Origin: an uncultured bacterium
GTDB lineage: Bacteria; CSSED10-310; CAZUFC01
NCBI GenBank assembly: GCA_964619725.1
Contig: CAZUFC010000046.1
Span: forward strand, 1 to 53,159
Length of the DNA: 53,159 nt
Reading direction: 5' to 3'
Of the stretch, positions 11,201-33,783 are shown one piece after another. The notes beneath the pieces were generated by a model, which did no database searches, had not been told where the DNA came from, and was given only the letters and a program-made list of their open reading frames with translations. Within the stretch, counting starts at the first letter, position 1. Every line of letters starts with the position of its first letter. The position numbers and the translations under genes were made by a program.

Positions 11201-14200
11201 TCGAAGCCCACGGTACGGGGACGGTAGTCGGTGATAAAACCGAAATTGCCGCTTTGACCGACGTTTTTATCAGGTCTGGTTCAATGGTCAATTCCTGCGC
11301 GCTCGGTTCCGTCAAAACCCAGGTCGGGCACACCAAGTGCGCCGCAGGCGTCGCAGGAATGATCAAGGCTGCATTAGCCGTTTACCACGGAATATTGCCT
11401 CCGACGATAAACATAAGCAATCCCAATCCTTTTTATAAAAAAGAAACCAGTCCGTTTTATTTTAATCTCGAACCTCGTCCCTGGGCTAAACAAGTCCGAA
11501 GGGCAGGCATTTCCGCTTTCGGGTTCGGCGGCACGAATTTCCACGCCGTCATCGAACAATATAAACCGGAGGTTACGCCCAGAGGTTTAAACAAGTGGCC
11601 GATGGAGATTTTCATCTTCAGGGGAAAAGACCGCAAAGAGGCGGCGGCTAAAATGGAAAAACTCGAATTCCTGCTGAATGAAGAATATCCCTGGCGATTG
11701 AGAGACCTGGCATATTCGGTTTGTTCCGATGAGGGGCCCGTTCAAATTGTTCTGCTGGCTGAATCCATTGATGATCTGAAAGAGCGGTTGAATGAAGCGA
11801 AGAGTTTTCCCGGGGCTTCCAGGAACATCTTTCTACCTGAAAAAGACGACAAAAACAGGGGAAAAATAGCCTTCATGTTTTCAGGCCAGGGAAGTCAGCG
11901 GACCGGAATGGCGGCTGATCTCTTCGCCGCTTTCCCGCCGCTTCAGAAATACCTGGAAATGGGGCGAAAATGGTACAAAAAAATATATCCTCCCGCTGTT
12001 TTTACTCACAAGGAAAAAACTGCCCAGGAAAAGGAGCTGACGGAAACGGACAAGGCGCAACCTTCTTTGGGAATAGTGGAAATGGCGATGGCTGAGCTTT
12101 TGACGGAGCTGGGCATCCAGGCGGATATGCCTGCAGGTCACAGTTACGGAGAAGTGGCGGCCCTGGCTTACGCCGGCGCCGTTAAGGTTGAGGACTTGTT
12201 CGATTTAAGCGAAAAACGGGCGTTGAGCATCCTGGAAGCTGCGGGAGGCGACCCCGGTACAATGGCGATCGTGATCGGTTCCGCTGAGGATGTGGAGAAG
12301 GGTCTTGAAGGATTGGATGAGGTCTGGACCGCCAACCATAATTCACCAAATCAGACCGCCATTACCGGGACTGTTGAGGGTATTGAAAAAGCGATTAAGA
12401 AATTTGAGTCAATAGGGATGACCGCGAAAAAGATCAAAGTGGCATGCGCTTTTCACAGTCCTATAGTTGCGGAATCCAAACAGCTCTTCGGAAAAGTCCT
12501 GGATAAAATTGAAATTACAAAACCCCGGATGCCTGTATGGTCGAATACTTATGCCGCTCCCTACAAGAGCGATCCCAAAAGCATCAGGCGCACTCTAACC
12601 GAACATATCGTCAAACCGGTGAAGTTCGTTGAAGAAGTTGAGGCGATGTATGAAGCGGGAGCGCGTATTTTCATTGAAGTGGGTCCGGGACACATATTGA
12701 CCAACTTGGTGGAGAAGATTCTGGAAGGAAAGGACCATATCTGCATACCGACTGATCAGCCGGGAAAGCACGGCATTTCATCTTTACTGGAAGCTGCGGC
12801 GCGCCTGATTGCTGCAGGCGTTGATGTAAATACTGACTTTCTTTTCGACGGGCGCACAGTGGAAAAAATCGATCTCGATCAATCATATAAACTGAATCCC
12901 ACAACCTGGATCGTCGACGGACAGACCGCCAGGCCGATTAAAGGAAAACTTCCCGTTCATGTAGCCAATCCGATGACGGAACCCATCCAGTCGCTGTCGC
13001 TCCAAGGTTCAGGACATGCCGCCGGAGGACGCGATGAAGTGATGCGTGAGTATCTCAAATCAGTGCGTCAGTTCATGCAATCGCAGAGGGACGTCATGGT
13101 CAGTTATCTGGGAGGAGTCCCGCCTGCCCAGGTGGCGGGTTCTTTTGATGATGTTGATGAGCAGGCCGCATTGGAAGCCGGTTCGGATACGATTGAGGGC
13201 GAACTGATGGAAATGGAAGAGATGGAGCCCGAAAGCGTCAATGTCCAGGACCTGCTGCTTGAGATAGTCAGCGACAAAACGGGATACCCTGTCGAAATGT
13301 TGGATTTGGACCTTAATATGGAATCCGATCTGAGCATTGATTCCATCAAACGCATTGAAATTTTAGGCGAATTGAATATGCGGCTCAGCCTGGCTACTGA
13401 CGATGAGGCGAACAGAGATGAACTGATAGAAAAACTCGCAGCCATTAAAACGCTTCGGGGCATTATTGACTGGTTGAACAAGAACATCACGGATGCCCTG
13501 GAATCCGGAGAAGCCGCAGGTCAGCTTCCGGAAGGCGAGAAGGTCCAAACCGGCAATCAAGAATCTGAAAACCATGCCGAAGGAGCTTTTGATCCGGGCG
13601 ATTTAAACATCATTAAACGGTATGTGACTGGTATTGCTGATTCAGAGGAGGCTCAACCTCAGGAAAATGCTGATGGTTTCAAAATATTGATTACTGAAGA
13701 CGAACAGGGCCTTCATGAGAATCTGAAGAAACTGTTCGCCGAATCCGGCGCTGACGTCAAAACCATCAACGGCAAGAATTTATCCGAAGTCCCGGATGCC
13801 GAGGCCATGATCTATGTTTCGCCCTCAACGGATCAAAAGGATTTTGTGCCTTCTGATCTTTTCGATTTATGCAAGAAACTAGACCCCGGGAAAGTGAGAT
13901 ACTTCTGCGCCGCCACTTTTCTGGGAGGCGATCTTGGCGAAAAGGGAACGCTCGATGACGAAAAGATACTTACCAATTACAGGGGTATCGCCGGATTCCT
14001 GAAGAGTCTTTCCCAGGAGTGGAAAAACACGAAATTCAGGATCGTTGATTTGCCTCGGAACAGCAAAGCGGAAAAAGCAGCCGGACACATTTACCGGGAG
14101 ATGTTGAGCGTCAACGGTCCGATGGAAGTGGGTTATTCGGACGATACTCGCCAGGCTGTGAAAATCGACAAAAAAAGCATTGAAGAGGACAAAACGGAGA

Positions 14201-15081
14201 ATATTAAACTGGACGGCGATTCCGTCATTTTGATTACCGGAGGCGCTAAAGGAATATCAGCGCAGACGGCGAAATCGCTGGCTTCACGGTATAAATGCCG
14301 GTTTATTCTGGTCGGCAGATCGCCGGAACCGTCGAAAGAAGACGAATATCCCGAACTGTCGGGCATCCGGGATGCCAGGGAAATGAGAAAAGCCATTTTG
14401 GAATCAGGATTGGCGAAGAAACCGGCTGAAGTGGAAGCGCTGATGAAAAAAGCATTGTCTGCGCGGGAGATCAAACAGACTTTGAGCGATATCACGGAGC
14501 GTGGCGGACGAGCCTATTACTATTCGATGGACGTGCGCGATCCTGAAGCCTTCGGAGCTCTGATCGATAAAGCTTACCAGGATTTCGGCCGTATCGACGG
14601 GGTAATTCACGGCGCCGGCGTTATTGAAGACAAGTTGTTCAGAGACAAAACCAGGGACTCGTTTGACCGTGTATTCGAAACAAAGGTGAAGGCGGCTTAT
14701 ACGATCATGAGGAAAGTGAGGAAGGACTGCCGGTTCATCGTTTTCTTTTCGAGCATTGCAGGATTCTTCGGAAACAGAGGGCAGTCGGACTACGCCGCAG
14801 CCAATGATACCCTGGATAAGCTGGCTCAGGCCATGAATCGAAAGTCGGAAACGCGCGTTCTTTCGATCAATTGGGGGCCCTGGGACGGCACGGGTATGGT
14901 GACTGACGAGTTGAAGAAACAATATGCAAAAGCGGGTATCGGATTAATACCGCTTGAAGAGGGCGCGGAATTCATGGCGGATGAACTGATATACGGCGAC
15001 AAGGAAACCAGCCGAATCATCGTTATGTGCGCCGAACCTGAAAGTTTCATGCAAAGAGAGACGGAAGACACGCGGAAATGA
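8263..15081 (+). CDS. Iterative type I PKS/FAS (Pfa/Hgl-like): tandem FabK/nitronate-monooxygenase-like ER domains, KS, AT, ACP, KR
   Basis: GSESGG and EGGECGGHVGP flavin-barrel motifs; KS DAACASS, HGTGT, GHTKCAAG; AT GQGSQ, GHSYGE, AFHS; ACP DLSIDSIKRIEIL; KR GGAKGI, HGAG, YAAAN. Confidence 0.92.
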   Translation: MIEERKPMKKTRKLRHRILGITPFQNPDVSLLSALTKAGAYGILDLGLDEERARSSIKTASSVIKGNFGIRIPESAEYRIEELPENVNSVVFPDPESFRPYKGAANLVQVTSLEEAKEAESNGADGVIAKGSESGGRIGEYSSFILLQMLRGELGIPYWAQGGIGLHTSSAVLTSGAYGVVFDSQLALLDESRIGSELREILSKIDGTETRIFSGYRILKRPDIEKRLEGLNETDIPRRFGLEDLENKLVPAGQDAGLARLYSSEFRNVDNFIFAVKESVSGHLMQAKTLAPMEPGSPAARDHGTRYPVVQGPMTRVSDTPAFAEKVAEAGGLPVLALSLLRGEVARSLIERTKERMGDRSWGIGILGFAPQELRDEQFELIRQAGPDFVIIAGGRPAQAKQLEEAGIKAYLHCPSPGLLDLFIKEGARRFIFEGGECGGHVGPLSSFVLWESQIEKLLQFDKPEELSLLFAGGISDGLSAAMVSSLSAPLAVRGARVAVLIGSAYIFTKEAVESGAILQKFQDKAVELKGTSLLETAPGHASRCLRTEYTEFFEKEKQRLLDEGKNSEDIWMSLEKLNVGRLRIASKGERQLGADETDVETVADKEQEQEGMYMIGEVTALLDKVMSMEELHKEISEGSVRELKKVRIPRLFEHVNRDDIAIIGMSCVFPDAANTDEYWANILAGKNSVTEVPDKRWNKEIYYDGETLTGDKSCSKWGAFLPELFFDPLDYGIPPQSLASVEPVQLLSLHVARKAVEDAGYGKKGKPIPRETTSVIFGTEPGNELSGLYGLRAFLPQIFGEIPQELDQKLPRLTEDSFPGVLGNIISGRIANRLDLGGVNYTVDAACASSLTSVDVGVKELRAGISDMVIAGGADLHNSINDYLMFTSVHALSRTDRCRTFDAEADGTILGEGIAAVVLKRLEDAIIDGDRIYAVIRGLGAASDGRSQALTAPNKKGQERALSRAYKRAGMLPSDIELIEAHGTGTVVGDKTEIAALTDVFIRSGSMVNSCALGSVKTQVGHTKCAAGVAGMIKAALAVYHGILPPTINISNPNPFYKKETSPFYFNLEPRPWAKQVRRAGISAFGFGGTNFHAVIEQYKPEVTPRGLNKWPMEIFIFRGKDRKEAAAKMEKLEFLLNEEYPWRLRDLAYSVCSDEGPVQIVLLAESIDDLKERLNEAKSFPGASRNIFLPEKDDKNRGKIAFMFSGQGSQRTGMAADLFAAFPPLQKYLEMGRKWYKKIYPPAVFTHKEKTAQEKELTETDKAQPSLGIVEMAMAELLTELGIQADMPAGHSYGEVAALAYAGAVKVEDLFDLSEKRALSILEAAGGDPGTMAIVIGSAEDVEKGLEGLDEVWTANHNSPNQTAITGTVEGIEKAIKKFESIGMTAKKIKVACAFHSPIVAESKQLFGKVLDKIEITKPRMPVWSNTYAAPYKSDPKSIRRTLTEHIVKPVKFVEEVEAMYEAGARIFIEVGPGHILTNLVEKILEGKDHICIPTDQPGKHGISSLLEAAARLIAAGVDVNTDFLFDGRTVEKIDLDQSYKLNPTTWIVDGQTARPIKGKLPVHVANPMTEPIQSLSLQGSGHAAGGRDEVMREYLKSVRQFMQSQRDVMVSYLGGVPPAQVAGSFDDVDEQAALEAGSDTIEGELMEMEEMEPESVNVQDLLLEIVSDKTGYPVEMLDLDLNMESDLSIDSIKRIEILGELNMRLSLATDDEANRDELIEKLAAIKTLRGIIDWLNKNITDALESGEAAGQLPEGEKVQTGNQESENHAEGAFDPGDLNIIKRYVTGIADSEEAQPQENADGFKILITEDEQGLHENLKKLFAESGADVKTINGKNLSEVPDAEAMIYVSPSTDQKDFVPSDLFDLCKKLDPGKVRYFCAATFLGGDLGEKGTLDDEKILTNYRGIAGFLKSLSQEWKNTKFRIVDLPRNSKAEKAAGHIYREMLSVNGPMEVGYSDDTRQAVKIDKKSIEEDKTENIKLDGDSVILITGGAKGISAQTAKSLASRYKCRFILVGRSPEPSKEDEYPELSGIRDAREMRKAILESGLAKKPAEVEALMKKALSAREIKQTLSDITERGGRAYYYSMDVRDPEAFGALIDKAYQDFGRIDGVIHGAGVIEDKLFRDKTRDSFDRVFETKVKAAYTIMRKVRKDCRFIVFFSSIAGFFGNRGQSDYAAANDTLDKLAQAMNRKSETRVLSINWGPWDGTGMVTDELKKQYAKAGIGLIPLEEGAEFMADELIYGDKETSRIIVMCAEPESFMQRETEDTRK

Positions 15082-18000
15082 CCACAAAGACGAAAAAAGC
15101 AACGGACATAGCTGTAATCGGAATGGCCTGCATATATCCCGGAGCTCCCGATCTGAAGACTTTCTGGGACAATATCCGGAAAGGTTATGATGCGATAACC
15201 GAAGTGCCGGAAAACAGGTGGGAACCTTTTTATTATGATCCGGACTCAGACAGAATAGACCGGTTTTATTGCAAAAGAGGCGGATTCATTGACGATTACG
15301 CTGATTTTGATGCCCTGTCCCACGGCATAATGCCTGTGGCGGCTGAAGGCGCTGAGCCGGACCAGTTGCTTCTGCTGGAAACGGCCTGCAATGCGTTAAA
15401 AGATGCCGGTTATTTCAAGGAACGGACAGGTAAGCTGGATAAAACCGGCGTTATTATAGGCAAAGGAAATTACCTGGGCGCAGGTCTGCTGAGGCTCGCT
15501 CAAATAGTAAGAACGGGGCCTCAAATCATTTTCCTGCTGAAGGCTCTCTTTCCGGGAATATCGGATGAAGAGGCCGAACGCGTGCGAAAAGAATACGTGA
15601 AACAACTGGGGCGAGTGGGACCTGATACGGCCATCGGTCTGGTGCCCAATCTCTCCGCCTCCCGTATCGCCGCAAGACTAGATTTTCACGGTCCGGCCTA
15701 CACCATTGACGCGGCTTGCGCCAGTTCTCTTATAACTGTCGATCACGCCTGCCGCGAACTGCATTCGGGACGCTGCGATTTCGTTCTCGCCGGCGGCGCC
15801 CATACTTGTCACGACGTATCATTCTGGAGCGTTTTTTCGCAGTTGCAGGCCGTTTCGAGGAACCAGGAATGCCGGCCTTACGACAAGAAAGCCGACGGAG
15901 TTCTGATCGGTGAAGGCGTCGGCGCCGTTATACTGAGAAGATTGGAGGATGCCGAACGGGACGGAGACAGGATTTATGCGGTGATCAAAGGCTCCGGCGT
16001 CGCCTGTGACGGAAGCGCCGCAGGTTTGATGACCCCGGCTGTCGCCGGACAGATAAAATCTCTGGAGATCGCCTGGAAAGAATCCGGGCTGGAACCCGAA
16101 TCGGTCGGATACATCGAAGGACACGGCACGGCTACGCCTATAGGTGACGATACCGAACTGATGACTCTCGCGAAATTCTTCGGTAAACCGTCAGACAGCG
16201 AAACGAAAAAAGGACTGGGGTCCATCAAATCCATGATCGGACATACCATGCCGGCTGCAGGCGTTGCCGGCCTCATCAAAACCGTCATGGCCCTCCATAA
16301 CGATATGCTCCCGCCTTCGCTCCATTGCGAACAACCCAAAGAGGCTGTCAACAATACCCGCTTCAGAGTTTTGCAATCTGCAGAAAACTGGTCCGAAACA
16401 GGACTCAATAAAATCGCCGGCATCAATGCCTTCGGATTCGGCGGCATTAACGCTCACACCATAATCACCGCCTATGCCGATAAGAAGTCTAAAAGAAAAA
16501 CTGCCTCACGCCGCACTTCAAAATCTATAACAGAAGAAGAAACGCTCTTCATCGTCGCTTCATCCAAAGAGGAAATGCTCGAAACCATCGATAAACGGGA
16601 ATCAAGCATTAGAGAAGGTAATTACAGGCTGGCCGTTTTTAACCCGGACCCGAAAAAACTCGAACGAGTGAAGAAAATCGTCACAAGAGACAAACCCTGG
16701 CGAGGCAAACAGGACGTCTGGTTCTCCAATGAAGGACTGATTGAAAACCGCGGTAAAACAGCCTTTATTTTTCCTGGTATCGACAGCTTTTTCGAACCTC
16801 AACTCGAAGATGTGGCCGAGCATTTCGACATGGAAAAACCTCAATACCTGCACCCGGAAAACCTGGAACAGACCGGCGTCGGCGTTATCGAAGTCAATAT
16901 GATGCTGGATAACGTCATGAAAAAAATCGGGATAACGCCCGATCACATCGCTGGGCACAGTATCGGCGAATGGAGCGGATATATCGCTTCCAATATGATT
17001 ACGCAGGAACATCTGTTCGAATTCGTGGACAAATTGAAACCGGGCTCTCTGCAAGTCCCCGGCGTGCTCTTTCTGGCTGCAGGATGCGGTAAAGAACAGG
17101 CCGAAAAAGCGATGAAAGGATTGAAAAAAATCGCGGTATCGCATGATAATTGCCCGCATCAAACTATTATTTGCGGGATTGAAAAAAGCATCAATACCGT
17201 TAAAGAACGTCTGATCAAATCCGGCGTCATCTGCCAGGTATTGCCCTTTCAATCAGGGTTCCATTCTCCCCTGTTTAAAGATTACCTCGAACAGCATCGA
17301 CGCCTGCTGGAAGAACTCGAAATCGGACCCGCAGACGTTCCTGTCTGGTCCGCAACCAACTGCAAAACCTATCCCGACAAAGGCGACAAAATAAAACAGT
17401 TAATGCTGGAACATCTGCTCAATCCCGTCCAGTTCCGACAACTCACCGAAAAACTCTATCAACAGGGCGTCAGAGTATTTATCCAAATAGGCGTCGGCAG
17501 TCTTACCGGGTTTATTGACGATACGTTAAAAGACAAGTCCGCCTTGACCATCGAAGCTAACGTACCTAAACGAACCGGCATGCAGCAGCTCAGGCGCGTC
17601 GTCGCCGCTCTTTTCACGGAAGGCGCAAAAGTTGATTTCAAAAGAGTGGGATTACCGAAAATCGAACAGGATAAAAAATCTGGCAGAATGATGAAACTTC
17701 AATTGGGTGTCCCTCTCGTCAGGGAATTTTCTCCCGTTGAAACGGCTTCCGGTATCCCTGCCGTGATAGAAAATGCCGGTGAAGAGGATAGACTCGGTTC
17801 GGAATTCCAGAAAACGTTTCAGGACATCAGCGCCATGCAGAGCAATATCCTGAAGCTCTACCAGAAAAAACGACCGGCAAAAGATAAGAAACTTGCCGGG
17901 GCTGAAGCAGCAACGAAGAAACCTGAAGCAAAAGCTCCTAAGGCAGGAAAAAAACGCAGAAAAAGTTTCAAAGTGAAGCAGGTAATATCGCTGGATGCCT

Positions 18001-19448
18001 ATCCGGAACTCTACGATCACATGCTTTTCAAACAGCCCGATCACTGGGAGGATATTGACGATACTTTCCCGGTCGTGCCTATGACGATGTCCATCAGCCT
18101 GATCAAGGACATTGTGGAAAGGGAAGTTAAAAATAAAAAAGTGATCAGCGTTGAAGAGATCAAGGCGAACCGGTGGATACCCGCGGCAGACCCCCTGGAA
18201 TTGAACTTCGCCGCTCAATTCATCTCCGATGATAAAATTAAAATGACCGTCCAGGACTATTTCTCAGCCGTGTTGACGATAGCCGACGACTATCCTGATC
18301 CTCCCGGACCTTTCAATGAAAACAATTTTACCGATCTGCATCCCCCCCATATCGATGCAAAAGAGCTTTACGACAAGAGATGGATGTTCCACGGACCGGC
18401 TTACCAGGGAATTACCGTCCTCGGTCCGCTCTGTCCCGACGGTATAAAGGGCAAAATCAAGGTTCCCCGGGGAAAAGGCTCACTCATAGACAATGGCGGA
18501 CAACTCTTCGGCTACTGGGTGAACAGGCATACGGCCAAGGATAAACTGGCGCTGCCCATAAGGGTCAAACGGGTAGAATTCTACGCGGATGAACCGGAAC
18601 CCGGAGAAATGTTCGATTGCCTGGTGTATAACCCCACCGTCAAAGAAAAACAGGTACTGACCGACATGGACTTCATCCAGGACGGGAAGCTTAAATTGCG
18701 CGTCATACGATGGGAAGACAAGCGATTTAAAACCGACGACAGATTATTCCTCCTTATGAGAATGCCCGGAACGCACATTCTTCCCATTCCCCTGGAAAAT
18801 GCTTTCCTGCTTTTCAAAAACGTTTATAAAGACCTGGCGGAAAGAGAATACATCACTTACAGGTTTTTGAATAAATCAGAGCGAAAAGACAGGGAAAAGC
18901 TGGGACCGGGAAAAATCGCCTCCTGGCTGGCAGGACGCATAGCCGCCAAGGATGCCGTTCGCAAGCTTCTGCTGGATAAAGGGTATAAGTCTCTCTATCC
19001 CGCTGAGGTCACCGTTAAAAACGATGAAAAAGGCAAGCCTTACACATACGGCGCCTTTGATGAAGATATCAGGATTTCACTTTCCCACAAGGATGAATAC
19101 GGCGTCGGTATGGCCGCAGAAGGAAAAGACGTGGGCATCGACATTGAAAGAATTGAACCCAGAACAAAAGAATTCGAAAATATATCCTTCAATAAGGATG
19201 AATTGAAGTTGATCCCGATAGATCAGGACAGGAAAAAATGGACAGCCGTATTCTGGGCCGCTAAAGAAGCTCTGGCTAAATGGGGAGGCGAAGGCTTGAA
19301 AGGCGCTCCCAGGAAGTTCAAAATTGAAAAAATAATTGACGACAGAACGCTGGCGGTTAATGGACGGTCAATATTTTACAAAATTTATGAGGACTACGCC
19401 ATAGCCTGGACCTGGGGCGATCCCCAGACCACAGACAAAGGAAAGTGA
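15078..19448 (+). CDS. Type I PKS: KS, AT, DH and fused C-terminal 4'-phosphopantetheinyl transferase
   Basis: ATGA overlap with the upstream gene; KS DAACASS, HGTAT, GHTMPAAG; AT GHSIGE, GFHS; DH DH...PVVP, MFHGPAYQ; PPTase SLSHK, GIDIERI, WAAKEA. Confidence 0.92.
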   Translation: MTTKTKKATDIAVIGMACIYPGAPDLKTFWDNIRKGYDAITEVPENRWEPFYYDPDSDRIDRFYCKRGGFIDDYADFDALSHGIMPVAAEGAEPDQLLLLETACNALKDAGYFKERTGKLDKTGVIIGKGNYLGAGLLRLAQIVRTGPQIIFLLKALFPGISDEEAERVRKEYVKQLGRVGPDTAIGLVPNLSASRIAARLDFHGPAYTIDAACASSLITVDHACRELHSGRCDFVLAGGAHTCHDVSFWSVFSQLQAVSRNQECRPYDKKADGVLIGEGVGAVILRRLEDAERDGDRIYAVIKGSGVACDGSAAGLMTPAVAGQIKSLEIAWKESGLEPESVGYIEGHGTATPIGDDTELMTLAKFFGKPSDSETKKGLGSIKSMIGHTMPAAGVAGLIKTVMALHNDMLPPSLHCEQPKEAVNNTRFRVLQSAENWSETGLNKIAGINAFGFGGINAHTIITAYADKKSKRKTASRRTSKSITEEETLFIVASSKEEMLETIDKRESSIREGNYRLAVFNPDPKKLERVKKIVTRDKPWRGKQDVWFSNEGLIENRGKTAFIFPGIDSFFEPQLEDVAEHFDMEKPQYLHPENLEQTGVGVIEVNMMLDNVMKKIGITPDHIAGHSIGEWSGYIASNMITQEHLFEFVDKLKPGSLQVPGVLFLAAGCGKEQAEKAMKGLKKIAVSHDNCPHQTIICGIEKSINTVKERLIKSGVICQVLPFQSGFHSPLFKDYLEQHRRLLEELEIGPADVPVWSATNCKTYPDKGDKIKQLMLEHLLNPVQFRQLTEKLYQQGVRVFIQIGVGSLTGFIDDTLKDKSALTIEANVPKRTGMQQLRRVVAALFTEGAKVDFKRVGLPKIEQDKKSGRMMKLQLGVPLVREFSPVETASGIPAVIENAGEEDRLGSEFQKTFQDISAMQSNILKLYQKKRPAKDKKLAGAEAATKKPEAKAPKAGKKRRKSFKVKQVISLDAYPELYDHMLFKQPDHWEDIDDTFPVVPMTMSISLIKDIVEREVKNKKVISVEEIKANRWIPAADPLELNFAAQFISDDKIKMTVQDYFSAVLTIADDYPDPPGPFNENNFTDLHPPHIDAKELYDKRWMFHGPAYQGITVLGPLCPDGIKGKIKVPRGKGSLIDNGGQLFGYWVNRHTAKDKLALPIRVKRVEFYADEPEPGEMFDCLVYNPTVKEKQVLTDMDFIQDGKLKLRVIRWEDKRFKTDDRLFLLMRMPGTHILPIPLENAFLLFKNVYKDLAEREYITYRFLNKSERKDREKLGPGKIASWLAGRIAAKDAVRKLLLDKGYKSLYPAEVTVKNDEKGKPYTYGAFDEDIRISLSHKDEYGVGMAAEGKDVGIDIERIEPRTKEFENISFNKDELKLIPIDQDRKKWTAVFWAAKEALAKWGGEGLKGAPRKFKIEKIIDDRTLAVNGRSIFYKIYEDYAIAWTWGDPQTTDKGK

Positions 19449-20049: not shown

Positions 20050-20715
20050 TCAAATACCTCGAATAGCGCGGATGTATGCAAAAAATATTGCGACACAGAT
20101 TCCATAGGGCCTGCGGTAAACGCGAATGACGATCATGACGTTGAAATAATAATAACCACGAATCACGCGAATCATACGAATAAGAGGGACGATATTGCCG
20201 TCAAACGCAGGTCGTTCAGGTTTTCGTAGGTTAGAATATCCGGGGATGAACGCAACAATGCATATTTTTCTCTTCACTCGAATGCCTTGCAGAAAAAAGG
20301 CATTGAACAAAAATGCCTCTGTCGATGTTACAATTCTTCCGAATATCCCATCATTTTGTTCCGATTTCGGATTATTGAAGTGAGCCGCAATAGCCTTTTC
20401 AACGTGAGTTACTCGCTCTACAGGTCCCGCTTCGGGTCGAGTGTTCATGCCCGGAAAATCACTCGGCAAGCCGTCGTAGTCCAGCATAGTCGTCACAAGT
20501 GCATTACCGGCACCGTGAAGCAAACGGAGAATATCATTCTTAAATTTCCTGAAGCTGGTTACGCCACCCCTGAAATCAGGTCCGTCTATCACTCGCTTGG
20601 TGACAAGTATTTTTGGCTCCACATAAAGATTCATTGATAAGAAATGATCACAAAGCAGATCCTTGACGAATCGCTCCTCTGTTTGACCCTCAACAAGAAT
20701 AAGACATCGTTTCAT
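20050..20715 (-). pseudogene. Truncated DUF4276 (TOPRIM-like) protein; C-terminal half replaced by MITE-derived and unrelated sequence
   Basis: MKRCLILVEGQTEERFV...RGGV...VTTMLDYDGLP...VEKAIAAHFNNPK; family similarity ends at about 20370, where a family A fragment begins. Confidence 0.75.
20299..20369 (-). mobile_element. Right-end half of a family A MITE
   Basis: GGCATTGAACAAAAATGCCTCTGTCGATGTTACAATTC...CATTTTGTTCCGATTTCG matches the A2 end (23283-23352). Confidence 0.75.
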
Positions 20716-21143
20716 CACGGGCGGCCTCCCAGAAGGTTCTTTTCCCACAATTCTCCAAGTCCGTATCCTTCCGTTTCATCGAATGTTTCAAGCCATGTCG
20801 CCAGTCTTTTCCTGGAAAGGCGGCTGAATGTGGTTTCTCCATTCTTGCGTTCCACGGTCAAAATCTGTTCAGACTCAAGTTGATTAATAAGCATCACAGA
20901 CTGGGTCGCCGCAAGCAATTGATGACGAAACCTTGCGGCCCTGGAACAACAACGCATCGGCTCCACGCTGTAACGACCAGCGCGCTAAATTCTGCATTCG
21001 AATTTCTCGAAGAAACTGAAATGCCTAAGGTTAGACTTGCCTGATCCGTTAGCCCCGATGAAAACATTTAACGCATCCAGCTCTAAAGTTTGATCGCGGA
21101 TCGATTTGAATCCCTTTATTTCGAGTTTTTCAAGCTTTCTCAT
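20715..21143 (-). pseudogene. AAA_21/ABC-type ATPase remnant with frameshift and large internal deletion
   Basis: N-term MRKLEKLEIKGFKSIRD...IGANGSGKSNL (Walker A), shifted GADALLFQGRKVS, then directly C-term ATQS...LGELWEKNLLGGRP; stop overlaps the DUF4276 start. Confidence 0.8.
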
Positions 21144-23755: not shown

Positions 23756-24169
23756 GTGACCGCGTTGAGAAAGGAGGCAGCGGAAATGCACAGAAGCTTA
23801 AAACAATGTCCGGTATGCAGCGAGCCTCTGGTCATTACCAGGCTGGCATGCGACAAGTGCGGCACGGAGATAACGGGACGGTTTTACGGTTGCGAATTAT
23901 GCGGGTTGTCGGATGAGGAACGCCGTTTTGTTTTGTTGTTTTTGAAGTTGCACGGCAATTTTCGGGAAATGGAGAAGGCGTTGGGGATATCGTATCCGAC
24001 GGTGAAGTTAAGGTTGAACCGGTTGTTGGGACGGTTGGGATTATCGGACGACCAGGTGGTGAGTCGGAGCAGCTTGAGCCGGGAGGAACGCATGAAAATT
24101 CTTGATAAGGTCCTGGGATCGGAGATAACGGTTGATGAGGCTCTGGAGAGGTTGAAAGGAGGGGAGTAG
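23756..24169 (+). CDS. DUF2089 family protein (Zn-ribbon + HTH + SHOCT-like tail); likely start 23786
   Basis: CPVC...CDKCGTEITGRF, GNFREMEKALGISYPTVKLRL, ILDKVLGSEITVDEALERL; AAGGAGG RBS. Confidence 0.85.
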   Translation: MTALRKEAAEMHRSLKQCPVCSEPLVITRLACDKCGTEITGRFYGCELCGLSDEERRFVLLFLKLHGNFREMEKALGISYPTVKLRLNRLLGRLGLSDDQVVSRSSLSREERMKILDKVLGSEITVDEALERLKGGE

Positions 24170-24651
24170 TGATGGACAGGAGTGAAATACTGGAAAAGCT
24201 GGAGAGGGGAGAGATAACGGCTGAAGAAGCGCTGAAGAGTTTGAAACCGTTCCAGGCGGTGAAGAAGCGGGAAGGGAGCGAGACTCGGTCGAGGCTGCTG
24301 AGAGTATTCAAAATTAGCGTGAAGGACAAGGAGCATCGAATCAACATACCCATTCCGTTGGCGCTTTTCATGCCGATCGCTTACGTGGCGGCTGCGGTTG
24401 TTTACGCTTTGCCGAACGAGGTGTTTTTGAAGGTCCTGGAAGAAGCGAAGCAGAAGGGAAGAACCGGCAAAAGCATAGACAAGCGGAAGGAAAATGTTGA
24501 TGAGAATAAATTTCATTATGAAAGGGATATGGAGATTCAGAAGATTAAAAACGCGGTCGTTAAGGCGCTGATGTTCGTGGCGCATGATCTGGATGGTTCT
24601 CTGGTAGAGGTCAACGACGGCGAGGATACCGTCAGAATAGGAATTTATTGA
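24169..24651 (+). CDS. SHOCT-like/YvlB-N domain protein of the DUF2089 operon
   Basis: EILEKLERGEITAEEAL, INIPIPL, LVEVNDGEDTVRIGIY; coupled to the upstream gene. Confidence 0.7.
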   Translation: MMDRSEILEKLERGEITAEEALKSLKPFQAVKKREGSETRSRLLRVFKISVKDKEHRINIPIPLALFMPIAYVAAAVVYALPNEVFLKVLEEAKQKGRTGKSIDKRKENVDENKFHYERDMEIQKIKNAVVKALMFVAHDLDGSLVEVNDGEDTVRIGIY

Positions 24652-24663
24652 AAGGAGAAAAAA

Positions 24664-25071
24664 ATGAATGAACGAATTAAAATTTTAGAAATGGTGGAAC
24701 AGGGTAAAATAACGGCTGAAGAGGGCGCGAAATTGTTGAGCGCCATAGAGGAAGGCGAGCCGAAGAGAGAGCCGGCGACGGAAGTCATAAAAGCGGAAAA
24801 GAAGGATGACGTCAGTTATTTGAAAATAAGGGTTTTCGAAGGCGACATGGAAAAGCCCAAGGTTAAGGTGAACATTCCTCTGGCATTAGCCAAACTGGGA
24901 ATGCAATTCGTCCCGGACGACAAGATGAAGAACCTGGAAATAAAAGGTAAACCCTTTGATCTTGATGCCATATTGAAAGAGGTTTCGGAAAATTTTCAGG
25001 GTGAACTGGTAAATGTGGAAGACGTCGGCGAAGACGGCAAAACAACCATGGTTAAGATTTTTATTGAATAA
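24664..25071 (+). CDS. SHOCT-like/YvlB-N domain protein of the DUF2089 operon
   Basis: ERIKILEMVEQGKITAEEGAKLLSAI, KVKVNIPLALAK, VKIFIE. Confidence 0.8.
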   Translation: MNERIKILEMVEQGKITAEEGAKLLSAIEEGEPKREPATEVIKAEKKDDVSYLKIRVFEGDMEKPKVKVNIPLALAKLGMQFVPDDKMKNLEIKGKPFDLDAILKEVSENFQGELVNVEDVGEDGKTTMVKIFIE

Positions 25072-25346: not shown

Positions 25347-26951
25347 ATGAAATATTATCGGTTTATTTTAAGTCTTGCAGCGGCTGTTTTCATCATCGGC
25401 AGTTCGTTTGCCGTTGTTCCTCATCAAATTAATTATCAGGGATGTCTGGCGGATGAGGAAGGGAACCCGGTATCGGGTACTCATGATTTCGTTTTCAGTA
25501 TTTACAATGTTGAAGCCGGGGGGACGGCTCTCTGGGAGGAGTCACAGACCGTCGAATGCGACAGCGAGGGCGTTTTCCATGTTCTCCTGGGTGAAATAAC
25601 ATCGCTTGATTTGGCTTTCAGAGAAATGTATTGGCTGGAAATCGAAGTGAACGGAGAGCTGCTCAGTCCGAGGCAGATGTTGGCCAGCGTTGGACAGGCT
25701 TACAATTCCCAGGACGTTTACGATGAGGATATCCTTGTGAGGAGCGTAAGCATTACAGGCTATCCGTCAGAGCTGGTAATCAACGAGAACGGCCAGTGGG
25801 TCGGCGATCCGACGGGTTTGACAGGTCCTACGGGTCCGTCCGGTCCTGTGGGCGCTGCGGGTCCGACGGGTCCTGCGGGTTCTACTGGTCCTGTGGGCGC
25901 TGATGGTCCTACCGGTCCGATGGGTCCGACGGGTCCCGCCGGTGCAACCGGTCCCATCGGAGGTTCCCATGGCCAATTCATTTACAATGACTCCGGAACC
26001 GCTGCAGGCGCTGACATGTATTATGACGACGGAAAAATAGGCATAGGAACTGAAACGCCCGCCGGAGCGCTTGACGTAGCCGTCAATGTAATGGGAGACC
26101 CGCAACTCGATCAATCGCAAGTGTCGATCGAAATACATTGGAGCATCAACCTCAATTATTTTGGCCAGTCTTTTACTGCCGGTATCACAGGTCAGTTGTC
26201 TCAAGTCGATCTTTATCTGGATTCCGCAGCATACGATGCAGAATTCAGATTATTCGAAGGAGGCATTTGCGGCTATAATCCTTGCAATCCCACACCCGTC
26301 TACACGCAATCCGGCATCAATCTTTCCTCAGGATGGAACAGCATAATTTTAACGACGCCGCAAAGCATTGTATCCGGGCAGACTTATACATTCAAGGTAT
26401 ATAACGGTATGGTATTCAACGCTCCATCCGGAGACGACGCCGGTGATTATCCATATGGACGCTCTCTTTTCTCTGAAAATCATGATCTGGTCTTCCGAAC
26501 ATATGTAGAAACGACGTATTTAGCACACAGTTTAATCGTTACCGACGAAGGAAAAGTCGGCATAGGAACTGCTTCTCCTTCGGAGGAGCTTTATGTCCTC
26601 GGCAACATTTACGCCACAGGATCAATTACTCCGGGCTCATCCAGAGCATTAAAAGAAAACATCGTGGGTCTGTCCCTGGAACAAGCCGTCTCTGCACTCG
26701 AACTGCTCGATCCCGTTTCGTTCAATTATATATCAGACCATGAGGAAAAATGTCTTGGATTCATCGCTGAAGACGTACCTGATCTTCTGGCCGCAAAAGA
26801 CAGAAAAGGAGTCAATCCCATGGACGTTATCGCCGTGTTGACCAAAGTGGTCCAGGAACAACAGAATGTCCTGAAAAGACAACAACAAGAAAATGAATTG
26901 CAAAAAAAACAAATAGAACGTCTTGAATTGCTGATAAATCAAAATAAGTAA
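25347..26951 (+). CDS. Secreted collagen-like fibre protein with C-terminal peptidase S74 intramolecular chaperone
   Basis: Signal peptide; [10 protein letters not shown]-domain; about 16 G-X-Y triplets; GKIGIGT/GKVGIGT repeats; SSRALKENI...LGFIAEDVP plus coiled coil. Confidence 0.85.
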
Positions 26952-28369: not shown

Positions 28370-28508
28370 ATTAATTCTGAAAGTAAAATGTGCTGCATGC
28401 CGCCTCGTGACGGAAGAATAACCGTCCGCTAAGGAGCGCGAAGGACCGTGAAGAAAAGAGGAATACAGAAACGTCTGGGATTTCGGGCTGCTTTACTGAA
28501 TTGGCGGA
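28370..28508 (+). repeat. Family E repeat, left boundary of the DUF488 island
   Basis: GCTGCA...AACCGTCCGCTAAGGAGCGCGAA...GAAGAA...GAAACGTC...CTTTACTGAAT; direct repeat of 30635-30778. Confidence 0.65.
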
Positions 28509-28546
28509 TTAACGATAAGGGGAATAAAACGGGAACTCTTTAATCT

Positions 28547-28730
28547 CTGAACTCCTGGCAATGTGCCTTAAAAGAATTGTGAATTTTTTGGTGAAAACGG
28601 CTCAAGGTTCAAAGAATATCAATATTGCTTGTCGTGAAATTCAAAAATATTTCACAATAATTATGCCGAATCGGTGAGATTAAAAATTTTTTTAAATCAA
28701 TAGGTTGACTAGGGTATGTCCGGAGTTCTG
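28547..28730. mobile_element. MITE family B copy B2
   Basis: Ends CTGAACTCCTGGCA...TGTCCGGAGTTCTG; 5-bp duplication AATCT (28542-28546 and 28731-28735); shares AATTGTGAA and CACAATwATTATGCCGA with B1. Confidence 0.75.
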
Positions 28731-28771
28731 AATCTAAAAAATTTCCAGATATCAGGAAAAGATTTATTTCT

Positions 28772-29386
28772 TTATTCATACCATCCTGACAACTGCAGAT
28801 AGCAACGCTCCTCCCATTCGGGTTTATCAGAGGGGGTCCACCAGCGTGCTAACGATAATCGGATCAATGTGCCCGCTGGAATCAAATCCACACACGCCTG
28901 CAATCCTACAAATGGTAAAAAAACGAATCCATCTTCACTCCGATAACGATATCGGATTCGATTACTTTCTGTTTCCTTTTCAATATCTTTGTCAGATATC
29001 CAAAATTCTACACTATGACTCGGTATACCAACTCTTCGACAGATATATGCGCTTCCTCTTTCTGTACGCATAAGCAAACCATTAAAAAGGTTGCGCATTC
29101 CCCCTTTCATAATTTCAGCAAAATTTTGCAGATAGTCGGAAATCTTAACCATCGGACCGATAAAACGACTCTGATAAAAAAACACATCCTCTGAATGTGG
29201 AAGAATTATATCATTTTTCGGAGAAAAAACAATATCCCATACCTGACCAACTTCAAACGGCGTATTATCGGGATTGTTATGTCTTCCTACGGGAATCAAT
29301 CGAACATTGCGATAATCCTTCATTGTTAAGCCGCTTATGCATACGCCGGTTTTCATTCGAGTTTTGGCGACAATGAGTGTTTTCAT
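28772..29386 (-). CDS. Dual OB-fold domain protein
   Basis: LIVAKTRM..GVCISG, VRLI, GQVWDI, PHSEDV, LSLARWW.P, RCYLQLSGW; ATGA overlap with the DUF488 gene. Confidence 0.7.
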   Translation of the reverse strand: MKTLIVAKTRMKTGVCISGLTMKDYRNVRLIPVGRHNNPDNTPFEVGQVWDIVFSPKNDIILPHSEDVFFYQSRFIGPMVKISDYLQNFAEIMKGGMRNLFNGLLMRTERGSAYICRRVGIPSHSVEFWISDKDIEKETESNRIRYRYRSEDGFVFLPFVGLQACVDLIPAGTLIRLSLARWWTPSDKPEWEERCYLQLSGWYE

Positions 29387-29871
29387 GGCAAAAGGTGTAT
29401 AACATCAACGCCCCATATTTCATGCATTCTATCAGCAGCGAGAGCTCTATGGCAAGCTGAAGGGTTCTGTTCCACACAAAATAGTACGATTCGATTATAA
29501 TGCGGTTCAATTTCTTTGAAAAACTTATTAAAATCAAAAGCATCCAATATTTTTCTCTTGTATTCGATTCGGAATTTCTTATCCAGATCAGTTCTATTCT
29601 TTTTATGAATTCCGCGCTTTTGATCTATCTCTTTTTGTTTTTCGCGAATTTCCGCAGTCGGCGCAAGTTTTTTAATATGCAAGTAATCAATATCCATACT
29701 GCTAAGCTTTTGTTGCAATCTCCTGCTGTTGACGAATGCATACTTTGAGCCTCTTACTCCCCTTCTTTGCCTTACATCGCAGAATAGATCAATTTCTTCA
29801 TGCAGCAAACCTCTGAAGAAATCTTTTTCAGTGAAACCATATACGCCTATGGTGTAAACTTTAAGAGCCAT
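29383..29871 (-). CDS. DUF488 family protein
   Basis: VYTIGVYG, CDVRQRRGVRG, LAPT, LFCVEQNPSACHR. Confidence 0.88.
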   Translation of the reverse strand: MALKVYTIGVYGFTEKDFFRGLLHEEIDLFCDVRQRRGVRGSKYAFVNSRRLQQKLSSMDIDYLHIKKLAPTAEIREKQKEIDQKRGIHKKNRTDLDKKFRIEYKRKILDAFDFNKFFKEIEPHYNRIVLFCVEQNPSACHRALAADRMHEIWGVDVIHLLP

Positions 29872-29891
29872 CGTAGTTATAATTTCATCTC

Positions 29892-30509
29892 CTATTTTTT
29901 TATTCTCCTGCGGGATTTAAATGATCGATCATTCGGTCCGAAAAGGCTCAACTGTCCTTTGAACACCCTGGCTATCGCCTCTTCGTGAGAAATTATTTTT
30001 CCCTGTTCGTCTATATGTTCGGGATGATGTCCCCTTGACTTCATGACTTCGGAGATAAGCTTGGTACGGTGACACATTTCAGGTTTAGCTTCACTGCACA
30101 TCAGAACAAGTGAAAACTGCCGATTAATGGCTCTTTCAATACGGGCAATCCCCGAAAGGAAATAGTCCTTCTCCTTAAGCTTGTCATAGTCCGCCTTTCC
30201 ATTTGTGTACACTGATGAATCATCAGGTGTTCCTCCCAGAGAATCTCCCATGAACAGATAACGAATGCCAATTTTACTCAAAGATGCCTTTAACGGTGCT
30301 TTTGAGAAATCTGGACTGTATCGCGAATACGGCGAAGAACGAACGTCAATAAGAAACTCGATCTTGAAATGTTTCAGAAGAAGGATAAAATCAGAAATAG
30401 CCCTGTTTCCATATCCTATCGTCCTTATCTTTCCTGAGTGAATTTTTTTCATATTCCACTTTCTCTTTTTGAGAATAACCATATGGCGATTTTGCTGCGA
30501 ACGACGCAA
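29892..30509 (-). CDS. DUF488 family protein with C-terminal QLSLF motif; likely start ATG 30452
   Basis: TIGYGNR, LIDVRSSPYSRY, LGG.P, LMCSEAKPEMCHR, QLSLF. Confidence 0.88.
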   Translation of the reverse strand: MRRSQQNRHMVILKKRKWNMKKIHSGKIRTIGYGNRAISDFILLLKHFKIEFLIDVRSSPYSRYSPDFSKAPLKASLSKIGIRYLFMGDSLGGTPDDSSVYTNGKADYDKLKEKDYFLSGIARIERAINRQFSLVLMCSEAKPEMCHRTKLISEVMKSRGHHPEHIDEQGKIISHEEAIARVFKGQLSLFGPNDRSFKSRRRIKK

Positions 30510-30634
30510 CTATCTGATTCATCTTCCTTATTACAGGGGCGGCTATTCGCTTATCGACCAAATTCATAATAATGAAAAACTATGAATGAGTCAAATGAAT
30601 GCTAAGAAAATGGGGTCAGATTCATTATGAAAGC

Positions 30635-30923
30635 TTTGATTTTAAAGGATAAGAGGCTGCACGACTGGCTGGGACGAGGAAAAACCGTCCGCGAAGGAGC
30701 GCGAAATCACGCGAAGAAGAGTCTTTCATTGAAACGTCAGAGCTGCCTGGCGCCTTTACGGAATGTTCAGCCTGGCGGGAAAGCAAAAAACTTCAGCCGT
30801 TAGAAATGGAACACGGCAGTATGAACTCGGGAATCAATAAAACCATGGAGGGCCGATGAAAGAATCAGGTCTACGGTTTTTCTTTCCCTCTGCTTTTCGA
30901 AGATTCGCGTTCTTTCGTGGGCA
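30635..30923 (+). repeat. Family E repeat, right boundary of the DUF488 island, with inverted partner arm
   Basis: AACCGTCCGCGAAGGAGCGCGAAATCACGCGAAGAA (9-bp period); inverted arm TTCGAAGATTCGCGTTCTTTCGTGGGC at about 30896-30922. Confidence 0.6.
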
Positions 30924-33034: not shown

Positions 33035-33496
33035 TCAATACGATTTTGTATTGGAAACGTGCTGGAACTCATCCCAGCCTCCGGGCAGTCCCTCATCCAT
33101 ATAATGCGAACATCCTTCCTCCATTATACAGCGATGAGCTTTCTTATCGAAAGTCAGCCATTTTCCTTTCATCTCCTTCGCCAGCGCAGCATAACAGGCA
33201 TCATATCCGGTTAACCCCTTTTTTACGAAATGATAGGCATCCTTCGCCAATCCTTCTGTCATCGGATGTCTGATTATGCCTCCGTTGAGTATCGGTATTA
33301 CTCCCTTTATGAATATCGTATGACCCTTTTCCGTCAGTCTGCACAAAACAGAATATACCTCAAAACTGAATAATTCCGGGATTATAAATTGACCAGGCTC
33401 CTCCAGCAATCTCTCAAGAACAGCGACGGCATTCGCATGCTTTTCGTTTCGTAAAAACCATTTTATCGCCACTGAAGCATCAGGAACCCAGATCAT
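33035..33496 (-). CDS. vapC: PIN-domain toxin (VapC family)
   Basis: VPDASVAIKWF...E...LTGYDACYAALA...WLTFDKK. Confidence 0.9.
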   Translation of the reverse strand: MIWVPDASVAIKWFLRNEKHANAVAVLERLLEEPGQFIIPELFSFEVYSVLCRLTEKGHTIFIKGVIPILNGGIIRHPMTEGLAKDAYHFVKKGLTGYDACYAALAKEMKGKWLTFDKKAHRCIMEEGCSHYMDEGLPGGWDEFQHVSNTKSY

Positions 33497-33783
33497 GACC
33501 TATATCCCCTCAGTTCTCGTAGTACTTCCACGCTGTCTCTCGAATCAGCGCTGTCAGTGGCCGATTCCCTTATGATCTTTAAAAGCCGCTCCTTTTTTTC
33601 CCGAACCTGATAATCAAGAAAACGCTTCTCATATTGCTCCGGCGTAATCAGAACAGCCCTTATCTTGCGACCCTTGCTCACCAGTATCGGCTCACCCGTT
33701 TCCGTCAGCATATCCAGTACCTCTCCCAGATGATTCCTTATTTTAAGAGCGTTTACGGTTCTCATCGGCTCTAACCTCCTCAA
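33493..33783 (-). CDS. Phd/YefM family antitoxin; likely start 33765
   Basis: TVNALKIRNHLGEVLD...EPILVSK..KIRAVLI; AGGAGG RBS; ATGA overlap with the toxin gene. Confidence 0.9.
   Translation of the reverse strand: MRRLEPMRTVNALKIRNHLGEVLDMLTETGEPILVSKGRKIRAVLITPEQYEKRFLDYQVREKKERLLKIIRESATDSADSRDSVEVLRELRGYRS

Follow-up and report, generated by a model that had tools for sequence, protein, structure and literature searches.

A conserved and mobile DUF488–DUF488–DuOB gene cassette with a possible role in processing DNA ends

DUF488 is a widespread prokaryotic domain for which we know of no measured activity. In a 2023 survey, Burroughs and Aravind reportedly placed it in the rhodanese-phosphatase superfamily and described a gene neighbourhood that unites it with DuOB, a dual oligonucleotide/oligosaccharide-binding (OB) domain. 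The same survey is said to have predicted that the RapZ-C/DUF488/DUF4326 clade acts on sugar-phosphate groups of NAD derivatives and on RNA termini. Here, we describe a cassette of this kind, in which two DUF488 genes (D1 and D2) precede a DuOB gene on the minus strand of a 53,159-nt stretch of DNA from an uncultured bacterium (contig CAZUFC010000046.1 of assembly GCA_964619725.1), referred to as a whole as the window. The family is already catalogued, as DuOB and DUF488 in Pfam and as the candidate PDC-M45 in PADLOC. A literature search, limited in reach, returned no experimental study of DuOB or of the cassette, and no defence phenotype.

The PADLOC defence candidates (PDCs) were nominated by their embedding in BREX, DISARM or type I restriction-modification (RM) loci (10.1101/2024.01.29.577857). 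One embedded instance sufficed for nomination, and PDC status is a prediction (Payne, Hughes, Fineran & Jackson 2024, 10.1101/2024.01.29.577857); the main text of that source mentions neither PDC-M45 nor DUF488. When the cassette was compared with the PADLOC models, D1 matched PDC-M45B with 157.9 bits (E 5.7e-47), while D2 scored higher on PDC-M19A (60.3 bits) than on PDC-M45C (47.5 bits). No PADLOC model matched DuOB, either for the window copy (E up to 10) or for any of 36 relatives (E up to 0.01). The resemblance to PDC-M45 consists of a multi-gene cassette with two DUF488 proteins, D1 corresponding to component B and D2 to component C. In contrast, component A is unmatched, since DuOB fits no PDC-M45 model, and D2 has its better score on PDC-M19A. 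Another described relative is E. coli YeaO, a hit in a CRISPR-adaptation screen whose deletion strain has altered spacer sources and which is stated to be undescribed in other literature (10.1101/2024.05.24.595836). YeaO is related to D1 and D2 only through the common DUF488 domain family; it is a single small stand-alone protein lacking a DuOB partner, a paralogue pair and a tail motif.

In the program-made list of open reading frames (ORFs) of the window, three ORFs running in one direction occupy positions 28772-30509 of the minus strand. The long DUF488 enzyme, D1, is encoded at 29892-30452 and comprises 186 residues from the ATG at 30452. Its frame is readable from a TTG at 30509, and the ATG was chosen because the N-termini of homologues place the start there. 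The short, arginine-rich DUF488 enzyme, D2 (29383-29871, minus strand, 162 residues), follows after a gap of 20 nt. The dual OB-fold protein DuOB (28772-29386, minus strand, 204 residues) overlaps D2 by 4 nt (ATGA), and the three genes are translationally coupled. D1 and D2 share 27% identity. The GC content of the trio is 0.399 vs 0.474 for the window, a value equally low in just 1.7% of same-size windows. No further DUF488 or DuOB genes were found in the whole assembly (9.17 Mb, 344 contigs, 90.9% complete, 6.5% contaminated). The original prediction, made from the sequence of the window, had described an AT-richer operon of two divergent DUF488 paralogues with intact DVR and CxExxPxxCHR motifs, followed by a dual-OB gene, and each of these elements was confirmed.

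Comparison across genomes shows that the trio is a real, conserved and horizontally mobile three-gene unit. Relatives of DuOB were sought in one genome per species for 185,579 species, which yielded 263 stretches, and 80 loci were kept. The ORFs of these loci were classified by phmmer and then by hidden Markov models built from the loci themselves. Five loci begin too near DuOB to be judged (L013, L057, L066, L071 and L078), and 75 are informative. The order D1-D2-DuOB on one strand was observed in 70 of the 75, where most adjacent genes abut or overlap. Five loci deviate: one lacks D1 (L008), two have DuOB-RecQ alone (L017 and L044), one has a truncated D2 and no D1 (L068), and one lacks D2 (L082); in L048, two genes are inserted ahead of DuOB. 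The arrangement is far beyond chance, and the joint conservation that the original prediction depended on is present.

Among the carriers are Chloroflexota, Bacteroidota, Proteobacteria, Verrucomicrobiota, Poribacteria, Nitrospinota and one Cloacimonetes metagenome-assembled genome. Cultured carriers include Rhodothermus marinus DSM 4252, Bacteroides graminisolvens DSM 19988, Dysgonomonas macrotermitis DSM 27370 and Mucilaginibacter pineti. The Rhodothermus marinus plasmid pRMAR01 and three IMG/VR contigs show the same gene order. When 1.84 billion representative proteins were searched with a profile, 953 DuOB clusters were obtained at E <=0.001. None of 50,697 phage records contained DuOB, and PHROGs held no match for it. 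Within the small phylum to which the window belongs, a DuOB match was present in just 2 of 14 genomes.

The cassette is bracketed by two copies of a 46-nt direct repeat. The left copy (28413-28458, plus strand), downstream of DuOB, contains a terminator-like hairpin of the minus strand, and the right copy (30676-30721, plus strand) likewise contains a minus-strand terminator-like hairpin. The copies are 80% identical, and their 23-nt core occurs at these two sites only in the 9.17-Mb genome. The low GC content, the unique flanking repeats and the patchy distribution support the insertion of a 2.26-kb segment at this position, and on these grounds the horizontal acquisition proposed earlier is likely. 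Four public DNA runs, all of one study, yielded contigs with no empty-site form, although contigs can miss rare forms.

The strongest functional clue is provided by the DNA-acting proteins to which DuOB is fused. In 15 of the 80 loci (14 by Pfam scan, plus L033), a complete RecQ carries DuOB at its N-terminus, the RecQ part itself comprising DEAD, Helicase_C, RecQ_Zn_bind, RQC and HRDC domains and usually HTH_40. In three of five fusion-bearing genomes, the assemblies of which may be incomplete, the fusion supplies the sole RecQ_Zn_bind match. A search of 5.8 billion proteins returned three "longer" DuOB relatives, all of them RecQ fusions. Among 26 longer representatives, DuOB was also found fused to HRDC alone, to a superfamily 1 (SF1) RecD/Pif1-like helicase with a TBP-TOTE domain and, in one protein, to D2 (D2-DuOB). 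Two further proteins of this set combine DuOB with an HSP70-like part, which is an ATPase (non-RecQ fusion proteins: P0297, P0291, P0345, P0294 and P0372). Because the partners with a known substrate (RecQ, HRDC and the SF1 helicase) act on DNA, these fusions suggest that the cassette works on DNA, as had been proposed for it.

DuOB from the window matches Pfam DuOB (PF22557) with 71.8 bits against a cut-off of 27, covering positions 1-210 of the 210 in the model. Its AlphaFold 2 (AF2) model, with a mean predicted local distance difference test score (pLDDT) of 96.3 and a predicted template modelling score of 0.91, shows two beta-barrels. The top Foldseek matches were the tandem-OB HIN-200 DNA binders AIM2, IFI16 and p202 (E 3e-4 to 1e-3, TM 0.32-0.40). 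In VIA, the N-terminal barrel resembled the single-stranded DNA-binding OB folds of TEBP-alpha, BRCA2, RPA, RecO and PriB (Z 5.5-6.7), a generic OB likeness. The HIN-200 proteins have two consecutive OB folds, as DuOB does. However, identity to DuOB is 8-12% at those TM values, and DuOB has its own invariant set of C, H, E, D and W residues, so the likeness is one of architecture and not of membership. The residues invariant in the DuOB family are C16, R29, P63, H64, E66, D67, W129, C195, Q198, S200 and W202. This set, with its P63-H64-x-E66-D67 segment, suggests that DuOB has a metal site or a pocket for a specific ligand. No relative of DuOB emerged when the PDB was searched by sequence. Homologues are named in some sources "dual OB domain-containing protein" or [quoted passage not shown].

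Both DUF488 proteins exceed the cut-off of Pfam DUF488 (PF04343, 22.2 bits), with 73.4 bits for D1 and 47 bits for D2. The cassette therefore contains the same domains, above Pfam thresholds, as the DuOB/DUF488 neighbourhood; with respect to the subfamily DUF488-N3a (PF22751), D2 differs in remaining under the cut-off (20.7 vs 27 bits), and D1 gave no match. The presumed active site of D1 is the motif CSEAKPEMCHR (C119-R129; 30066-30098, minus strand, translation checked), in which C119, S120, E121, P124, C127, H128 and R129 are invariant across 52 sequences. The corresponding motifs of D2 are DVR and CVEQNPSACHR, and D1 likewise possesses DVR, whose D-x-R residues are also invariant in the 52 D1 sequences. 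Across 33 sequences of the D2 family, D32, R34, R36, R37, R40, R76, R93, C132, E134, C140, H141 and R142 are invariant; D2 thereby adds six invariant arginines to the catalytic-type residues common to both proteins.

The AF2 model of D1 (pLDDT 89) displays a fold of the protein tyrosine phosphatase/rhodanese type. In VIA, the matches included CbiL/CbiF (Z 8.9-9.3), KAP (Z 8.7, root-mean-square deviation 4.0, 130 aligned residues) and laforin (Z 8.5), and Foldseek returned PRL-1, DUSP26 and SsoPTP (E 4e-3 to 7e-3, prob 0.97-0.99). The modelled fold thus resembles, with moderate scores, that of Cys-phosphatases and of the related N-domain of CbiL/CbiF. It bears out the phosphatase-type fold of the known neighbourhood and agrees with the reported placement of DUF488 in the rhodanese-phosphatase superfamily. 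A PDB sequence search with D1 gave a chance-level match only (E 0.14). The view of DUF488 in the original prediction, as an enzyme known from computational work alone, fits the literature that was found.

The flexible C-terminal tail of D1 contains QLSLF, a pentapeptide resembling beta-clamp-binding motifs (29940-29954, minus strand). Contrary to the original prediction, D1 does not end with it: QLSLF represents residues 167-171 of 186, and 15 residues follow (GPNDRSFKSRRRIKK). These include SRRRI (29901-29915, minus strand), the local form of a conserved S-R-K-x-Y tail motif in which I replaces a near-invariant Y. In 52 D1 sequences, S180 of the tail is invariant, and R181 and Y184 are conserved in at least 90%. 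The tail was modelled with low confidence (pLDDT 65-74), and residues 179-183 form a beta-strand in the AF2 model.

The consensus QL[SD]LF was reportedly described for clamp binding by Dalrymple et al. in 2001. Clamp clients with this motif include Pol IV, Pol V, MutS, Hda and others; the L-F pair is the main clamp anchor, and such motifs usually lie in flexible segments. Of the 120 homologues closest to D1, which are about 50% identical, 79 have the strict form Q[LM][SD][LM]F, vs 0 of 1264 unrelated ORFs of the same loci. The looser pattern GQxx[LMIVF][FL] within the last 60 residues was present in 119 of the 120, vs 6 of the 1264 background ORFs. The Y-family polymerases of the window's own genome carry QRDLF and QGDLF, a Chloroflexota DinB ends in QLSLGI, and the DnaN of the own genome was identified as a protein of 370 residues. 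D1 shares with clamp clients an exact QLSLF in a flexible tail, kept among near homologues, and DinB and other Y-family polymerases of carrier genomes have comparable motifs. It differs from them in that the motif is internal to the tail, is followed by the basic S-R-K-x-Y and has lost its Q in Bacteroidota. As a separate observation, the two polymerase genes with QRDLF and QGDLF lie directly downstream of a lexA homologue on contig C148 of the same genome (12151-15500; L112, L116, L124). The palindrome GCGAA-N4-TTCGC is found upstream of this lexA, and the group looks like a typical damage-inducible mutagenesis cluster.

Upstream of D1, a promoter-like site, TTGACT-17-TATTAT, was observed at 30566-30594 (minus strand), with 10 of 12 positions matching the consensus; it is a consensus match only. 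In the window copy, the palindrome TTCATTATTATGAA (30563-30576, minus strand) lies over the -10 hexamer as a possible operator, and a second palindrome, TTCATAATGAA (30621-30631, minus strand), is located 45 nt upstream of the first. Neither palindrome is common to the 66 other upstream regions that were compared. A de novo palindrome count over all 67 regions yielded AT-rich low-complexity arms only, common to at most five loci. No RNA run holding the stretch is listed among public runs. On the other side of the trio, just downstream of DuOB, lies a copy of a dispersed repeat (28541-28700) that measures about 155-165 bp and has short inverted ends. The genome contains 17 matches to it at 86-100% identity, its own copy and two partial ones included. 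Read depth is raised at this repeat and metagenome contigs break there, and it looks like a miniature inverted-repeat transposable element. The repeat also takes in most of a 56-residue ORF (28609-28779), which for that reason was not accepted as a gene.

The same-strand neighbours of the cassette, 41 downstream and 37 upstream, were scanned with Pfam and proved heterogeneous, with no conserved fourth gene among them. They encompass housekeeping genes (nitroreductase, major facilitator superfamily, L25, MurC-like, ThiC), mobile-element genes (integrases, a transposase, Mob_Pre, Bro-N), defence-type genes (GmrSD, an AAA_21 or AbiEii-like ATPase, Uma2, REase-ARP, HNH, D12 methylase) and genes of DNA metabolism (PriA, an AlkZ-like glycosylase, pol III delta', Prim-Pol, dNK). 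In the window, the downstream neighbour encodes an AAA_14/DUF4143 ATPase that matches PADLOC PDC-S01. It was considered as a fourth member and rejected, being located beyond the flanking repeat, equipped with a promoter-like site of its own and without counterpart among the 41 downstream neighbours. Upstream of D1 is a divergent gene for a B12-binding radical SAM enzyme. A PIN-domain toxin and a Phd/YefM antitoxin are encoded by overlapping genes at 33035-33783 (minus strand), 2.5 kb from the cassette. At a distance of 8 kb, a DUF4276 gene (region 20050-20748, minus strand, and 20750-21140) matches PADLOC HEC-01B (E 1.5e-31). No adjoining ORF of at least 120 residues was found that could be its ATPase partner, so this pair may be broken. 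The earlier description of a region of other conflict genes is borne out in part, by the PDC-S01-like ATPase, the PIN/Phd pair and the HEC-01B-like gene; the other immediate neighbour of the cassette is the radical SAM enzyme.

Some features elsewhere were also recorded. On pRMAR01 (L123, 3911-7684), a type III CRISPR locus contains the cassette, with cas1-cas2 following on the same strand after 123 nt; seen once, this adjacency is a lead only. In the window, a plus-strand gene at 25347-26951 encodes a 534-residue protein with a collagen-like G-x-y run and a Peptidase_S74 (endosialidase chaperone) domain. This protein matches many phage tail-fibre PHROGs, and no other phage genes were recognised beside it. 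Three small genes in a row occupy 23756-25071 (plus strand), a DUF2089 zinc-ribbon/helix-turn-helix gene followed by two genes with SHOCT-like domains. Two very large ORFs of 2272 and 1456 residues span 8263-19448 (plus strand); the latter, with ketosynthase, acyltransferase and C-terminal phosphopantetheinyl transferase domains, is a polyketide synthase.

Taking these observations together, we favour, tentatively and with somewhat less than even confidence, a cassette that forms a DNA-end or lesion-processing module with a RecQ-type helicase as partner and with the D1 tail possibly tethered to the clamp. DuOB would bind single-stranded or forked DNA via its two OB folds, while D1 and D2, probably as a pair, would target a phosphate-linked group carried by a DNA end or lesion. 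The flexible tail of D1 (G-Q-L-S-L-F-G, then S-R-K-x-Y) would tether the complex, most likely to the beta clamp at forks or gaps. A RecQ-type helicase, fused to DuOB in some lineages and separate in the window's genome, would unwind the DNA. The likeliest role of such a module would be the processing of blocked or unusual DNA ends in replication or gap repair. Of this picture, the gene identities, folds, invariant residues, synteny, RecQ fusions and the presence and conservation of the tail motif are shown here, whereas DNA binding, the chemistry, a heteromeric complex, clamp binding and the physiological role are inferred. For the abasic-site chemistry suggested in the original prediction, nothing was found in support. 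A bolder and rather improbable version is a new DNA-end repair route, in which DuOB would hold the DUF488 pair on single-stranded DNA and the D1 tail would tether it to the clamp. The pair would strip a phosphate-linked block, such as a 3'-phosphate or an adduct of nucleotidyl or ADP-ribosyl type, from nascent DNA ends at stalled forks and hand over to RecQ. A related possibility is that the cassette trims DNA fragments feeding recombination or CRISPR spacer capture, an option raised because cas1-cas2 adjoins the cassette on pRMAR01 and because YeaO was a screen hit.

Several observations weigh against a clamp-tethered module acting in repair. The fold matches are modest (TM 0.3-0.5, Z <10). 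Nothing was found in support of SOS (LexA) control: the 67 upstream regions contain no GAAC-N4-GTTC, CTGT-N8-ACAG or GTTC-N7-GTTC, and nothing upstream of the cassette resembles the palindromes before the two lexA genes of its own genome. This search covered the classical motifs and the own-genome lexA palindromes, and non-canonical operators may exist. The cassette is also rare (263 stretches across the genomes of 185,579 species) and patchy, and an accessory or conflict role fits this distribution as well as repair does. As for the tail, only 30 of the wider set of 71 locus D1s contain GQxx[LMIVF][FL] and 8 the strict motif. Bacteroidota D1 tails read T-V-D-L-F-G, in which the Q is lost and the L-F core kept, although the DinB proteins of four Bacteroidota carrier genomes keep their Q, with ends QLKFDF, QLSFDF, QLSFEF and QLSITF. 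The idea that the D1 tail tracks the clamp motif of its own lineage therefore brought no added support. Moreover, a conserved (F)-T-S-R-K-x-Y, which is no feature of clamp motifs, always follows the QLSLF-type motif and may point to a different partner. It is possible, though we consider it less likely than not, that the tail is a docking peptide for D2, DuOB or RecQ, or an autoinhibitory pseudo-substrate, and that the match to QL[SD]LF is coincidental. The elements best kept across the family, [DSN]-L-F-G and S-R-K-x-Y rather than Q, would suit such a role, and the modelled strand at residues 179-183 might indicate that the tail packs on the protein. Against coincidence stand the exact consensus pentapeptide in near homologues, with G-Q in 119 of 120, the near-universal L-F pair, the position of the motif in a flexible segment and a context of DNA, helicase and replication that suits a clamp client. 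The QLSLF-type motif of the original prediction is conserved in near relatives, its Q is lost in Bacteroidota, and we consider the odds that the D1 tail binds the beta clamp roughly even.

An anti-phage or anti-mobile-element defence system, related to PDC-M45 and recognising or modifying invading DNA, possibly at the invader's forks, is a serious alternative that we consider somewhat less probable; it and the DNA-processing reading need not exclude each other. The matches of D1 to PDC-M45B and of D2 to PDC-M45C and PDC-M19A would favour defence, PDCs having been nominated from within BREX, DISARM or type I RM loci, although a single embedded instance was enough and the status is predictive; component A stays unmatched, with 0 of 36 DuOB proteins fitting a PDC-M45 model. 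The patchy distribution, low GC content and unique repeats would suit a defence cassette, as would the loci adjoining GmrSD, AbiEii-like ATPase, Uma2, REase-ARP, HNH, integrase or transposase genes, the position directly upstream of cas1-cas2 on pRMAR01 and the conflict-type genes near the window copy, yet most of the 81 same-strand neighbours scanned with Pfam are housekeeping or unknown genes. Fusions of DuOB to the TBP-TOTE conflict-system domain and to HSP70-like domains point in the same direction, whereas its fusion to the seemingly sole RecQ in three of five genomes looks like genome maintenance, and our limited literature search found no defence phenotype in print. Finally, DuOB could be an RNA binder in a module that processes RNA ends, the substrates being tRNA or other RNAs that bear 2', 3' or cyclic phosphates. 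The D1 fold neighbours include two RNA 5'-phosphatases, the mRNA capping enzyme 2c46 and the baculovirus RNA phosphatase 1yn9; RNA termini are reportedly among the predicted substrates of the DUF488 clade; and OB folds bind RNA too. We consider this very unlikely, since all DuOB fusion partners whose substrate is known (RecQ, HRDC, SF1 DNA helicase) are DNA enzymes or domains that bind DNA, and the clamp-like motif and the neighbours PriA, AlkZ and pol III delta' also indicate DNA.

The window copy adds little beyond another member of the family, yet its insertion boundaries are unusually clear. For DUF488 and DuOB in general, the cassette provides a testable setting: the fusions to RecQ, HRDC and an SF1 helicase indicate a DNA substrate, the tail offers a candidate clamp-recruitment peptide, and the two active-looking paralogues are probably paired. 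Cultured carriers exist, so tests are practical. If both the clamp link and an activity on DNA ends were true, the cassette would represent a new accessory pathway in replication-coupled repair, or a defence that targets replicating DNA.

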